Assembly: GCA_965219455.1 (NCBI GenBank)
Contig: OZ244744.1
Location: 608,001 to 672,000, forward strand
DNA length: 64,000 bases
Reading direction: 5' to 3'
Source of the DNA: Candidatus Latescibacterota bacterium
GTDB taxonomy: Bacteria > Latescibacterota > UBA2968 > GCA-2709665
The translations under genes and the position numbers were made by a program. Below are positions 23,476-27,703 of the stretch, piece after piece (the first letter of the stretch is position 1; every line of letters begins with the position of its first letter). The notes beneath the pieces were generated by a model that saw nothing but the letters and a program-made list of their open reading frames with translations, ran no database searches and had not been told where the DNA came from.

Positions 23476-23603
23476 GCAAAACAGCCGACGTTTTCAAGAA
23501 AACCGACATTGCTTCACAAACCCCCGGGTTCCGCACCTGGGTGACTGTCATTGATCCGGACCGCGCAGCCTGATGGTCCAGTTGAGAATTATTAATTTTT
23601 TAA

Positions 23604-23633
23604 TTGACAAAAAATGGAATTTCCATATATTTT
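23604..23633 (+). promoter_or_regulatory. Sigma70 promoter for blaI with a palindrome in the spacer
   Basis: TTGACA (23604), TATATT (23626) and the inverted repeat atggaa-t-ttccat (23614-23626). Confidence 0.6.
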
Positions 23634-23812
23634 ATATTAAGGAATTAATCGCGCCACCCACGTTTAAACGAACCGCCCCGCTGGGGCAGCGTGGATCGCC
23701 CCCGCCTCGTGTTCTGACCCGGAAACAGATTGCCGAAATTCGGTCGCCGTTCAGACGCAGACGAGACCGACAACCGGCACCGGCAAAAAACGTCGTTACA
23801 GGAGTGGACTGT

Positions 23813-24190
23813 ATGGCAAGGCCGAAGTCACCCACGCTAACGGAAGCCGAACTCAGGCTGATGGACGTGCTTTGGAAAAAGGAGGCGGCCACTGTAAGCG
23901 ACGTGGTCGCGGCGCTACCCGGCAAAGAGCCGCTCGCTTATAGCACGGTGCTGACAACGCTCAGGATTCTCGAACGGAAAGGCTACCTGTCCCACGAAAA
24001 GGAGGGCAGGGCCTATGTCTACCAGCCGGTGGTTGGCCGCGAGGAAGCCAGAAGAAGCGTGGTTCGGTACATGATGAGCCGGTTTTTCAACAATTCGCCG
24101 GAGATGCTGGTGCTGAACATTCTGGAGAATGAAGCGGTCGACGCCGACGTTCTCGAGCGCATGAGACAAATGGTGGACGACAGCAGGTAG
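23813..24190 (+). CDS. BlaI/MecI/CopY-family repressor
   Basis: LTEAELRLMDVLW, LAYSTVLTTLRILERKG and EGRAYVY; SD aggag. Confidence 0.93.
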   Translation: MARPKSPTLTEAELRLMDVLWKKEAATVSDVVAALPGKEPLAYSTVLTTLRILERKGYLSHEKEGRAYVYQPVVGREEARRSVVRYMMSRFFNNSPEMLVLNILENEAVDADVLERMRQMVDDSR

Positions 24191-24200
24191 AAGGGAATCT

Positions 24201-26348
24201 ATGTTGGCGGCCTACGAAATATTCGATGCCGTTTCCCGGGTGATGGTGTCCTCCGCGCTCGACGGTCTCTGGCAGGGCCTGGTCGTGACGCTTGCGGTCG
24301 CGTGCCTGTTGGGAGTCGCGCGGTGGCTGAACGCACGTACCAGGTACGTGATCTGGACGGCCACGTTGCTGGTGGTATTCGCGCTGTCCTGGTCCGACGT
24401 CGGGAACCCGCCCAATCGTACGGGTGCCACGCGGATGTGGTTCAAGGCCGCGGAGACGAAAGACCCGGAGATGCCTGATTCCCGGAAGCTGAGCGGGGCG
24501 GACGCCTTTGAATCGGCGCCGGGCGCTGATCAGCCGAGGGACAGGGAACACGTGGAGTCGGCGTTTACGCCGGAACTGCCGGGGCGGTGGCCGGCGCTGA
24601 TATTCGGGGTGTGGATGCTGGTCGCACTGGCGCTATCGGCCAAACTCTTTCTGGGCCTTTGGCACCTCCGGCGCCTGAAACGGAGCGCAAGGCCCCTTCC
24701 CGCCCGATATCAGCACAGATTGCGCCATTTGCTCCGCGCAAACAAGACGCGGCGCTGGGTGCGCCTTTGCAGTTCCACGCGAGTACGCACGGCTGCGGCG
24801 ACGGGTCTGTTCAAACCCGTGATTCTGATTCCGGAGTCCATGCCGGACCGGCTGACGGAGGCTGAATTCGATCAGGTGGTCCTGCACGAACTGGCGCACT
24901 TGCACCGGCTGGACGACTGGACCAAACTGTTCCATGCGCTCGTGGGCTGCTTTCTGTTCTTCCATCCGGCCGTATGGTGGATTGCTCGACAGATGGACCT
25001 GGAACGCGAGGTCGCGTGTGACGATATGGTTGTGGGCATTACCGGAAGAGCCAGGGGATATGCGGCCTGCCTCACCCGCCTGACGGAGATGGCGGCGTCG
25101 CCGGTCGGATCGACACTGGGCATTGGCGCCGCCGGAGATCGGAAGCAGGTCGTCAGGCGGATATCACGGCTGTTGAATGCCAGACGGGGCCACGAACGCC
25201 GCCTCTCCCGCACAGGTCTGCTGTTGGCTTCGGTTTTGATTCTGGTGGCATTGACACAGTGCGGCGGGGTCGGGCCCACGGTTGAGGTGCCGGGCCGGTC
25301 CGAAGCCTTCGTAAAGCTGGCGGCCATTAAGGATCGGCTGCTTTCGTTCCTGCGGCTGGATGGGTTGCCTCCCGGTTCCGGTCGCATCGACATGGTCACG
25401 GTAATTGCAGATTCCACGGTGAGCCGGACTTTGCAGGGAACGCTCCGCGACGTCATCGAGCGTGTAATCCTGACGCCCAGGAAGGAGCGCCTTTACCATG
25501 TCTCTTTCACACACGCCGGAGATTTCAGCATGCTGCGACGGAAGAATATCGTGATCGCCGCGCCGCTGGATGGAGACCACGAAGCGGGCGGTCTGGTACG
25601 CTCCCTTGTGCCGCGGGCGCGTCGGGAGGCTATCCGGAACGGAGCGCCGCCGGTGGTCATCCGGCGGGACGTGTGGGCCGACGACCAGGTCGTGGTTCTG
25701 GTTACGGGCAAGGATCGTGACGCGTTGAGAGCCAATATGATGACGGAGGCGGATCGGATTTACGGCGCTATCGATACGAAGCGCGATGAATGGGTCGCCG
25801 AGTCTCTCTTCCGATTTGGCGAAAGAGAGAGGCTTGCATCGGAACTGGCGGACCGGTTCGGATGGCGTGTGCGCATTCCTTTCGGATTCAATTTCATCGA
25901 TACCCATGCCGATAGCGGGTTCGTGGTGCTCACGCGAACGCACGCGCGCGTGACACAGTGGATGTTTGTCTACCGTGAGGATGGCGTCAGCCCGGATCGT
26001 TTGACAGAGGCGTGGTGCATTCGGAAGCGGAACGAGATCGCCGCCCGGTTCTTTGACAACGACTTCGTGGATCAGACAGGCCTGAAGGTAAGTCAGCGGG
26101 AGTTGGGGAGCCGGCTGGCGGTGCATCTTGAAGGCGTTTGGCAGAACAATCTTGCGTGGAAGGGCGGGCCCTTCAGAAGCTACGTGCTGGTGGACGAGAA
26201 GACAGATCGGCTCTATTTCGTGGACTTTGGGGTTTACGGCCCGAATCGAAGAAAAGAAACCTATCTGCGTCAGTTGGACGTTGTGGCCAGGACGTTTGAA
26301 ACGGGGCCATTTTACGAGGACCGGCTCGCGACGTCCGATCGCCCCTGA
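24201..26348 (+). CDS. M56 (BlaR1-like) metallopeptidase fused to a DUF4837-like periplasmic domain
   Basis: GLFKPVILIP, HELAH, HPAVWW and EREVACDD. The C-terminal half (VIADS, DVWADDQ, GVW...GGPFRSY, KETYLRQL) resembles DUF4837 from recall. Confidence 0.85.
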   Translation: MLAAYEIFDAVSRVMVSSALDGLWQGLVVTLAVACLLGVARWLNARTRYVIWTATLLVVFALSWSDVGNPPNRTGATRMWFKAAETKDPEMPDSRKLSGADAFESAPGADQPRDREHVESAFTPELPGRWPALIFGVWMLVALALSAKLFLGLWHLRRLKRSARPLPARYQHRLRHLLRANKTRRWVRLCSSTRVRTAAATGLFKPVILIPESMPDRLTEAEFDQVVLHELAHLHRLDDWTKLFHALVGCFLFFHPAVWWIARQMDLEREVACDDMVVGITGRARGYAACLTRLTEMAASPVGSTLGIGAAGDRKQVVRRISRLLNARRGHERRLSRTGLLLASVLILVALTQCGGVGPTVEVPGRSEAFVKLAAIKDRLLSFLRLDGLPPGSGRIDMVTVIADSTVSRTLQGTLRDVIERVILTPRKERLYHVSFTHAGDFSMLRRKNIVIAAPLDGDHEAGGLVRSLVPRARREAIRNGAPPVVIRRDVWADDQVVVLVTGKDRDALRANMMTEADRIYGAIDTKRDEWVAESLFRFGERERLASELADRFGWRVRIPFGFNFIDTHADSGFVVLTRTHARVTQWMFVYREDGVSPDRLTEAWCIRKRNEIAARFFDNDFVDQTGLKVSQRELGSRLAVHLEGVWQNNLAWKGGPFRSYVLVDEKTDRLYFVDFGVYGPNRRKETYLRQLDVVARTFETGPFYEDRLATSDRP

Positions 26349-26428
26349 AACCTTCCGCACCCGGCGATCGTCCGTACATTCCCCTACACCCGTGGGCAAA
26401 GGGTAACCGCACGCGGTTGAGGAAAACA

Positions 26429-27022
26429 ATGAGACGAGAGAAAGCGTTTCCGCTGAAGCGCATCAATGCCGTTATCGCGATTTTGGTTCTCGGCCATATG
26501 TTCTACATCTATTCAACCTTTCCTTGAAAGATCCCTGTGTCCGTGGGTGCGGACGGAGAGACAGTTGCCACACTGGAGGAGAGAGCTCCGAATTTTGCCC
26601 TCCGTGACATAGAGGGTGATTCCGTACAACTCAGTGATTTTGAAGGTAAGACCATTCTGATTGATTTCTGGGCGACGTGGTGCGGGCCGTGTGTTGATTC
26701 ACTGCCACACCTGAATCAGGCGCACCTGTCAGAGAATGGTCTCGACCTGGTGGTCCTGGCCGTAAACGTTGAAACCCCGAACATCGCGCGCCGGTTTGTG
26801 CAGGAGCGGGATTACACCTTCATTTCCCTGGTTGATGAGGACAACAGGGTCAGGAAGCAGTACGGCGTCGATGCCATCCCGACGACATTTCTTGTAGATA
26901 AGTTCGGTGTGTTGAGAGATAGGATAGTTGGAGGGTCCTACGTATCCCTGAAACTGGCTCTCTGGGGCGAGAAGTTCAGGCGCTTGTTAGATATTCGAGG
27001 AGAGCCGAGGATCGGAATTTAA
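26429..27022 (+). CDS. TlpA-family disulfide reductase with N-terminal anchor and in-frame TGA at 26525 (candidate Sec, or nonsense mutation)
   Basis: APNFAL, DFWATWCGPC and AIPTTFLVD. ATG 26429 (SD gagga) is in the same frame and encodes a TM helix before the TGA. Confidence 0.85.
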
Positions 27023-27061
27023 CCTATAGTGAATCACGCCCCGTCTGAAAGGAGCCTGACG

Positions 27062-27703
27062 ATGATACGCCATAAATTCCCCGCTGTAGACCTGAAGTTG
27101 GCATACCCGAAGGTGATGGCGCGGTGTGTGGGTATTTCCTTCCTGCTTCTTCTGGTCCTCGCGCTGGTGTTTCCCTCGTTCGACATGGACACCTCTGCGC
27201 GGATTCGCCCGACCGAGGTGTTAACCGTCGAGCGGATTCCGGAAACCCGGCAGATGCGCCGCCCGGAACCCAAACGCCCCGCCGTGCCCGTCGAAACAGA
27301 CAGCGACGATGTACCGGAAGACGTGACCATTGAGTCTACGGAACTGGATTTCGATCGAATACCCGTGGATCTGCCGGAACCGGCGCGCCACGAGACCGCG
27401 CCCGTTGAGGAGGAAGTCCTGGAATTCTGGCGGGTTGAGCGGCAACCCGTACTGGTCCGTCGCGCAATGCCGGATTACCCGGAAATGGCGAAGAGGGCCG
27501 GGCTGGAAGGGGTGGTGTTCGTGGCGTTTACGGTAGGCGCCGACGGAAGCGTCGGAGACGTGCGGGTGGTGCGCGGACCGGAAATCTTCAGACAGGCGGC
27601 AGTCGAGGCGGTTTCGCAATTTACATTCGAACCCGCCGTGCAGAACGACCGGTCCGTCGCCGTGAAGATGACGATGCCCATCCGGTTTCGGCTGAGCGAT
27701 TGA
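27062..27703 (+). CDS. tonB: Energy transducer TonB
   Basis: N-terminal TM, Pro/Glu-rich linker, PDYPEMAKRAGLEGVV and FEPA..MPIRF. Confidence 0.88.
   Translation: MIRHKFPAVDLKLAYPKVMARCVGISFLLLLVLALVFPSFDMDTSARIRPTEVLTVERIPETRQMRRPEPKRPAVPVETDSDDVPEDVTIESTELDFDRIPVDLPEPARHETAPVEEEVLEFWRVERQPVLVRRAMPDYPEMAKRAGLEGVVFVAFTVGADGSVGDVRVVRGPEIFRQAAVEAVSQFTFEPAVQNDRSVAVKMTMPIRFRLSD

Follow-up and report, generated by a model that had tools for sequence, protein, structure and literature searches.

A TlpA-like gene interrupted by an in-frame TGA

The window analysed here is a stretch of 64,000 nucleotides (nt) from a Candidatus Latescibacterota bacterium (contig OZ244744.1, positions 608,001 to 672,000), which lies within a single-contig genome of 5.84 Mb. 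At positions 26429 to 27022 of the window, the gene for a TlpA-like thioredoxin-fold protein (tlpA) contains one in-frame TGA codon, which separates 32 sense codons, translated from ATG 26429 as MRREKAFPLKRINAVIAILVLGHMFYIYSTFP, from a downstream frame that reads KIPVSVGADGE...WCGPC... and ends at a TAA stop (Table 1). From its sequence, 26429-27022 is probably one gene that encodes a 197-residue anchored TlpA-like selenoprotein, with selenocysteine (Sec) located in the juxtamembrane tether.

A sequence-only reading of the window had claimed a start at ATG 26429, behind a gagga Shine-Dalgarno sequence and in frame with tlpA, a basic N-terminus followed by a transmembrane helix, and a TGA at 26525-27 after which KIPVSVG continues in frame. 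All of these coordinates hold on direct reading, and both the translation and an AlphaFold2 helix at residues 10-30 agree with the proposed anchor. As that reading had also pointed out, the program-made list of open reading frames (ORFs) opens the downstream ORF at GTG 26537, without the anchor. This GTG and a further one at 26543 (codons 37 and 39) are situated 9-15 nt 3′ of the TGA, both within the stem of a hairpin, and neither is preceded by GGAG, GAGG or AGGA. Scored by codon-usage log-odds, the 30 upstream codons reach 0.34, where long ORFs have a median of 0.36 per 30-codon window; over the same codons, each of the five remaining frames gives a negative value. Elsewhere in the genome TGA serves as an ordinary stop, for example at the end of the upstream blaR1-like gene (26346-26348).

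Table 1. Features of the tlpA locus and its neighbours, in window coordinates.
Feature	Positions	Strand	Basis
Shine-Dalgarno-like GAGGA, 5 nt upstream of start ATG 26429	26419..26423	+	read directly
Codons 1-32, single transmembrane helix (~residues 10-30) after a basic N-terminus (MRREKAFPLKR)	26429..26524	+	translation, conservation 7/7, AlphaFold2 helix 10-30
In-frame TGA, proposed Sec33	26525..26527	+	TGA in 7/7 orthologues, same column
Codons 34-197, flexible linker (34 to ~44), then thioredoxin-fold TlpA/redoxin domain	26528..27019	+	Pfam, AlphaFold2
Hairpin, SECIS-like, 7-bp stem, loop GGGU at 26545-26548	26538..26555	+	folding and alignment fold
Active-site motif WCGPC, intact (W84, C85, G86, P87, C88)	26678..26692	+	read directly
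True stop TAA	27020..27022	+	read directly
BlaI-type repressor gene	23573..24190	+	Pfam Penicillinase_R 113 bits
BlaR1-type M56 peptidase with DUF4837, ordinary TGA stop	24201..26348	+	Pfam Peptidase_M56 116 bits, DUF4837 114 bits
TonB C-terminal domain protein, own membrane helix	27071..27703	+	Pfam TonB_C 78.6 bits

The TGA and its flanking codons are conserved in seven species

The read-through protein served as a query for 41 related genomes and subsequently for all 22 genomes of the family. Orthologues of full length are present in 7 of the 15 genomes of one genus and in none of the 7 genomes from four other genera of the family. All seven orthologues carry TGA at the same column, with a sense codon in none. 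They are 73-92% identical, show no indels across the first 190 codons, and contain neither frameshifts nor further stops. Specifically, all seven read ...F-P-TGA-[K/T]-I-P-V-S-V-G-A-D-G..., with F31, P32, I35, P36, V37, S38, V39, G40, A41, D42 and G43 invariant. Among codons 1-32, 10 vary only synonymously and 12 conservatively, and the Pro codon just 5′ of the TGA is CCT, CCC or CCG. In the domain, divergence at third codon positions is 0.26-0.48, versus 0.03-0.2 at first and second positions. Synonymous variation upstream and the third-position bias in the domain together indicate that both parts are translated in all seven species. In the active site, W84, C85, G86 and C88 are invariant; the motif is WCGPC in 6 of 7 orthologues and WCGLC (P87L) in G009 (L032).

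Among the orthologues, the terminal stop varies both in its position and in its codon (TAA, TAG or TGA), and in G013 it is lost. In this closest relative (92% identity; L028, G013:C1:2992598-2996188, minus strand) the terminal stop of tlpA has become CAA, and a 424-codon frame runs on into the TonB_C gene. Such a TlpA-TonB_C fusion, if real, would be topologically odd, as the TonB_C part has a membrane helix of its own.

A phylum-wide search of 168 genomes with the database protein P0013 added solely one non-orthologous LolA-like fusion (G094). The seven-sequence alignment, searched against genome contigs, found at least 80 ordinary TlpA homologues (29-44% identity, with a generic DFWATWC pattern) and no orthologue among the matches listed. 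Likewise, the pattern VD[AS]IPTTFLVD, which occurs in 7 of 7 orthologues and in 0 of 119 other loci, gave four loci in metagenome contigs, none of them orthologous.

A 5.8-billion-protein collection holds 15 orthologue-like clusters with 57-80% identity. The 11 orthologue proteins retrieved from them all start 4-17 residues after the TGA column (MSVGADG, MGADG, MSAGADG). The more distant orthologues P0012, P0013, P0014 and P0130 have 61-65% identity. In line with this, a profile search run exhaustively over 1.84 billion representatives yielded 131,841 matches, of which the best 150 were examined, and the single-domain orthologue-like proteins P0013, P0130 and P0224 begin at profile positions 38-39. 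Database copies that begin just after the TGA column are what a gene caller is expected to produce at a Sec codon.

The TGA is also unchanged in contigs of three runs from other studies (X5, X7 and X10). The X5 contig is 7,867 nt long and covers the TGA, and a variant X7 contig keeps the TGA alongside four other differences. From X10 comes a 237-nt RNA-library contig that bridges 26448-26683 with the TGA kept; RNA libraries can contain DNA. At position 26525, where the sequence-only reading had proposed a check of raw reads, contigs of other runs show TGA and no sense codon. Contigs of two RNA-library runs labelled ‘sponge metagenome’ cover 26448-26683 and 26785-27042 with 1 and 4 other letters, respectively. 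The RNA-library contigs hint at expression and at habitat, at a low depth (2.2-2.4) and with DNA carry-over possible.

A SECIS-type hairpin follows the TGA

Downstream of the TGA, the hairpin GUCCGU-GGGU-GCGGAC occupies 26539-26554 and has 7 base pairs (bp) when a flanking U-G pair is counted. Its stem holds two G-U pairs, and a weak lower stem reaches 26532-26561. Counting from the U of the UGA, the GGGU loop occupies nt 21-24; loop and UGA are 17 nt apart, the spacer that the sequence-only reading had already given. An alternative register pairs 5 bp (UCCGU/ACGGA) around an 8-nt loop, GGGUGCGG; this 5-bp register, with loop GGGUGCAG from nt 21, is intact in all seven orthologues. The further claim that the hairpin fits the general bacterial model for selenocysteine insertion sequences (SECIS) is borne out on all four criteria. 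The model, as given in the available text of a 2026 review (PMC13188914), has a loop of 3-9 nt, a stem of 4-16 bp, a G in the first two loop positions, a distance of 16-37 nt from the UGA and a minimum free energy of -7.5 kcal/mol or lower. The hairpin has a loop of 4 nt that starts with G, a stem of 7 bp, a spacing of 17 nt and a minimum free energy of -13.9 kcal/mol.

The genome provides its own references for comparison. The SECIS of selD, AGUCC-GGUC-GGACU, has its loop at nt 21-24, the fdhA loop GGUCU starts at nt 22, and the SECIS of an outer-membrane barrel family, GCUCCC-GGGC-GGGAGC, again has its loop at nt 21-24. We derived a motif from four other selenoprotein genes of the genome, with a stem of at least 5 bp and a loop GG[GU][CU] from nt 21 or 22, in which U at the fourth loop letter was our own choice, all four reference loops having C. 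This motif follows 111 of the 160,359 genomic TGA trinucleotides (0.07%), 13 of them with at least 7 bp, and the 111 sites include all four reference genes as well as the TlpA site. Such a low frequency argues that a hairpin of this kind after the TGA is beyond chance. When a looser motif is combined with open, coding-like frames on both sides, seven sites are found, and 7-bp stems occur only at TlpA and fdhA. Folding z-scores of the hairpin region are unremarkable, that of the 22-nt hairpin alone being -2.6. An Rfam scan of 26000-27500 (E up to 10) reported no SECIS family, and is uninformative since it also misses the selD and barrel SECIS elements.

The genome encodes a complete selenocysteine machinery

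All four genes that the sequence-only reading had proposed to look for (selA, selB, selC and selD) are present in the genome, each over its curated cut-off: selA with 562 bits (cut-off 268), selB with 367 bits (cut-off 242), tRNA-Sec with 73.6 bits (gathering score 47) and selD with 360 bits. The selA, selB and tRNA-Sec genes are adjacent to one another, and selD has an in-frame TGA of its own at the canonical ...TCG-U-AAK site. Outside this genome, selB was found in 5 of 5 other carrier genomes examined, a set to which the sixth carrier, G014, does not belong. The fdhA gene at 5417399 carries the classic ...CSRA-U-HAP site.

Three further genes with in-frame TGA codons were observed in the genome. 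Two thioredoxin-fold genes, at G000:C1:219192 (+) and G000:C1:5667874 (-), have TGA at the active-site position (GHN-U-PTC and SPT-U-PVC, respectively) and belong to the ordinary UxxC redoxin type. The third, found in the genome scan at G000:C1:2286935 (-), is M20-type amidohydrolase-like and reads ...GDWGHG-TGA-GHNLLGV... with coding-like frames on both sides; judging from the family motif, Sec may stand there for a metal-ligand Cys. A 12-mer common to tlpA and this M20-like candidate, CCGTGGGTGCGG, has 4 genome copies versus about 2 expected by our own estimate, and we do not regard it as meaningful.

An outer-membrane barrel family of the same genus has a putative Sec behind an export signal

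The genome scan also revealed a gene at G000:C1:5700578-5701546 (to 5701549 as L145:279-1250) in which a signal peptide, ...AAHA|QGGVS-TGA-RRPVLPGG..., precedes an outer-membrane barrel that Pfam assigns to Phenol_MetA_deg (26 bits) and that has no match in NCBIfam. All 15 genomes of the genus have the gene as two paralogues, 53% identical, with exactly one TGA in 30 of 30 matches; in the neighbouring family, it was found in none of 8 genomes. All 12 loci examined have the TGA in a common column. Moreover, the stem shows a compensatory change from C-G to U-A (L151, L152, L156 and L157), with a U-G intermediate in L149. From these sequence features, the barrel looks like an uncatalogued selenoprotein family.

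The barrel and TlpA share the order of export signal, Sec and mature domain, a GGGC or GGGU tetraloop at nt 21-24, and the same codon register. Both also read U-[KR]-x-P-V after Sec, and a search for more such genes found only these three. They differ in that the folds are unrelated and the barrel signal peptide looks cleavable (AHA|Q), leaving no anchor. With its occurrence in 15 of 15 genomes and its compensatory stem changes, the barrel has the stronger evidence of the two. It also offers a SECIS that has independent support and whose shape is that of the TlpA hairpin, and it indicates that Sec immediately after an export signal does occur in this genus. We tentatively raise the idea, rather unlikely on present evidence, of a lineage-specific module common to both proteins, with Sec right behind the export signal, which could be a portable Sec/SECIS cassette. 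If such a module exists, it would place a selenol on a flexible periplasmic N-terminal tether, to act in redox relay or to bind soft metals or selenium; alternatively, it would gate envelope-protein synthesis by selenium supply. In no such case would Sec replace a catalytic cysteine.

Domain structure, predicted topology and gene neighbourhood

In Pfam, the downstream part scores above the cut-offs of two models, AhpC-TSA (86.9 bits) and Redoxin (79.6 bits), and is of the TlpA/ResA redoxin type (PF08534/PF00578, cd02966). NCBIfam scores fall below the cut-offs: the best match is ResA, with 107.8 bits (cut-off 170), while TlpA scores 69.9 bits (cut-off 230) and NF041054, the Sec-containing WAxxUGC family, 69.3 bits (cut-off 300). 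AlphaFold2, run on an 89-row alignment, gives a mean predicted local distance difference test (pLDDT) score of 81.9, with a helix at residues 10-30 and a confident thioredoxin fold from about residue 45 to 189; pLDDT exceeds 90 over most of residues 50-170. The basic N-terminus suggests an N-in orientation, which would place Sec33 on a flexible linker at the outer face of the membrane. According to this model, the TlpA domain would have an N-terminal anchor that places it outside the cytoplasm only if UGA33 is read through. Two short TlpA-like paralogues of the genome and most of the 75 more distant homologues in the alignment have a signal peptide, anchor or lipobox, so that a TlpA domain deprived of the upstream part, and with it of any export signal, would be atypical for the family. 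We also considered whether Sec could be the +1 residue of a lipobox, making a seleno-lipoprotein; this is unlikely, given the misfit of T-F-P at -3 to -1 and a hydrophobic stretch of 20 residues.

The gene is situated between the blaI-like/blaR1-like pair and the TonB_C gene. In four congeners, G001, G002, G007 and G011 (L139, L141, L142 and L143), blaR1 is directly followed by tonB_C with no tlpA, so that the presence of tlpA is polymorphic within the genus. P0224, a database protein in which TlpA residues 39-111 are joined to a TonB_C protein, looks like a deletion intermediate.

Selenocysteine insertion and competing explanations

Translation can start at ATG 26429 behind its good Shine-Dalgarno sequence, and the first 32 codons give a cytoplasmic N-terminus with positive charge, followed by a single membrane helix. 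We propose that, at UGA33, the hairpin with its G-first loop 17 nt downstream would recruit SelB and Sec-tRNA(Sec), and Sec would be inserted. Translation would then continue across the flexible linker into the thioredoxin-fold domain, which would be periplasmic and has a normal WCGPC site. The product is predicted to be a TlpA/ResA-like thiol-disulfide oxidoreductase that has a type II anchor and carries an additional selenol at the outer face of the membrane. The proposal of the sequence-only reading, that Sec is inserted at residue 33 and outside an intact WCGPC site, thus gains support from the TGA in 7 of 7 orthologues, the Sec machinery and the SECIS-type hairpin, and we judge it likely to be correct. 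What that reading had named as evidence against itself, namely a non-Cys residue at this column in homologues, a sense codon in reads, or missing Sec machinery, did not turn up. Of the signs that it had hoped for in an alignment of homologues, the conserved TGA was found, a Cys at the column was not, and the hairpin proved nearly invariant instead of covarying.

Several observations weigh against Sec insertion. The DNA examples number seven and come from a single genus; the working rules of Haft and Gwadz for selenoprotein families, in the available text of their preprint (bioRxiv 10.1101/2022.07.06.499078), ask for at least ten independent examples, although two others of these rules, ‘100% TGA’ and ‘similarity through the U’, describe the present alignment. 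In the seven-sequence alignment fold, the nearly invariant hairpin has no pair changed on both sides. A C-A mismatch interrupts the 7-bp register of G013, and two of the seven orthologues have a disrupted lower stem. At the fourth loop position, six orthologues have U, and only G009 has the C of all four reference SECIS elements. Folding z-scores are ordinary, at -1.0 (66 nt) and -1.2 (45 nt), as is that of the barrel SECIS (-0.98). AlphaFold2 assigns a pLDDT below 50 to residues 32-40 and gives no confident placement of residue 33. On the protein side, a form with Cys or any other sense codon at the Sec column is missing from the searches: a word search with the whole protein gave no match with >84% coverage, and one with the N-terminal 45 residues gave no protein of 108-345 aa and, in the shorter size range, a single match, the 32-aa peptide of the window itself. 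Among the best 150 matches of the profile search, only P0164, P0217 and P0249, which are unrelated multi-domain proteins, extend before position 33, and they have ordinary hydrophobic segments with no Cys there. A lipobox Cys of distant lipoproteins that fell in the Sec column was a MAFFT artefact caused by entering U as C, and we did not count it as a Cys homologue.

Termination at the UGA followed by reinitiation is the main rival, in our estimate an unlikely one. It would yield a 32-residue membrane peptide and, with the hairpin unwound, a restart at GTG 26537 or 26543 that produces a cytoplasmic, unanchored TlpA. Such coupling is mechanically plausible, and here too the observations speak against Sec insertion: all seven orthologues keep GTG at codons 37 and 39, which follow the stop by 9-15 nt and lie in the stem, and the lack of a Cys homologue and of covariation would also be in keeping with a restart. 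P0005, P0006 and P0012, however, are called from the codon-39 position, neither GTG has a Shine-Dalgarno sequence, and a TlpA domain with no export signal would depart from the family habit described above. A plain stop could also drift to TAA, as the terminal stop does, yet TGA is kept in 7 of 7 orthologues, and the hairpin shares loop letters and exact spacing with the SECIS elements of the genome. Less probable again, and in our view very unlikely, is a leaky UGA that a near-cognate tRNA (Trp, Cys or Arg) reads through with no Sec involved, the hairpin being merely stimulatory. UGA is regarded as the leakiest bacterial stop, and the residue lies in a disordered linker where its identity may matter little. 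A sense codon would be more efficient, yet none has appeared in seven lineages; moreover, the genome has a full Sec system and several other TGA-containing genes, and the hairpin matches a SelB-type signal. Decay or error, the alternative that the sequence-only reading itself had offered as a nonsense mutation or an assembly error, is effectively refuted. The gene is evidently dispensable, being absent between blaR1 and tonB_C in G001, G002, G007 and G011, and P0224 is a TlpA-TonB_C deletion hybrid, as decay might predict; the TGA, however, is shared by seven species and by the contigs of three runs from other studies, with purifying selection on both sides of it and with neither frameshifts nor further stops.

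Discussion

If Sec is inserted at UGA33, its most likely role, still speculative, is that of a third redox-active chalcogen on a flexible tether, which may join the CGPC cysteines or a partner in a selenenylsulfide and act as an electron relay. The analogy is with the C-terminal GCUG arm of mammalian thioredoxin reductase, which relays electrons. Alternatively, and equally as speculation, the early UGA may make the synthesis of TlpA depend on selenium supply.

With TlpA, ResA and CcmG (DsbE), the predicted protein shares the thioredoxin fold, the WCxxC site (WCGPC here), the N-terminal anchor and the periplasmic domain. It differs in being an equivalog of neither ResA nor TlpA, scoring below both curated cut-offs, and in its blaI-blaR1-tonB_C setting, which is not that of cytochrome maturation. 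We know of no TlpA, ResA or CcmG member with Sec in its tether, and searches of the full-text literature, with subscription papers and supplements outside their scope, yielded no account of any TlpA whose Sec lies outside the motif. The catalogue in the available text of the review likewise lists no TlpA-type protein with Sec in the tether (PMC13188914). In that text, catalogued thioredoxin-fold selenoproteins, TlpA-like ones included, carry Sec in the active-site motif (UxxC or UGC), and the Sec-containing TlpA/redoxin families comprise ResA-like WAxxUGC (NF041054), thiol:disulfide interchange (UxxC), redoxin (UxxC) and Prx-like oxidoreductase (UxxC/UxxU) proteins (PMC13188914). Like the protein proposed here, these are thioredoxin-fold envelope proteins recoded through SelB and SECIS; unlike them, it has an intact CGPC site and would carry Sec 52 residues upstream, beside the membrane. 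The sequence-only reading had called this position unusual, and the catalogue agrees, as far as its available text goes, since in its Sec-containing TlpA/redoxin families Sec sits within the motif of the active site (PMC13188914).

In its logic, the nearest precedent is HgcA. In HgcA selenoproteins, too, reading UGA as Sec upstream of the annotated start reveals a hidden N-terminal extension, and Sec stands outside the main catalytic domain (available text of bioRxiv 10.1101/2022.07.06.499078). HgcA differs in belonging to another family and in having a cytoplasmic PCUGP motif with an adjacent Cys, found in many species (bioRxiv 10.1101/2022.07.06.499078). In tlpA, the proposed Sec has no neighbouring Cys, would be juxtamembrane, and is confined to one genus.

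Nearly all catalogued bacterial selenoproteins have Sec in place of a catalytic Cys, and prediction pipelines lean on Cys/Sec alignment. A gene such as tlpA is easily missed, with no Cys homologue found, Sec outside the redox motif and only 32 codons upstream of the UGA, and gene callers truncate it in every database copy seen. If it proves to be a selenoprotein gene, it would also offer a simple test case for an early UGA as a selenium-dependent expression gate. If the present reading of tlpA as a selenoprotein gene is true, Sec can be recruited to the juxtamembrane tether of an envelope oxidoreductase, and, together with the barrel family, this would suggest N-terminal Sec of exported proteins as an overlooked class.

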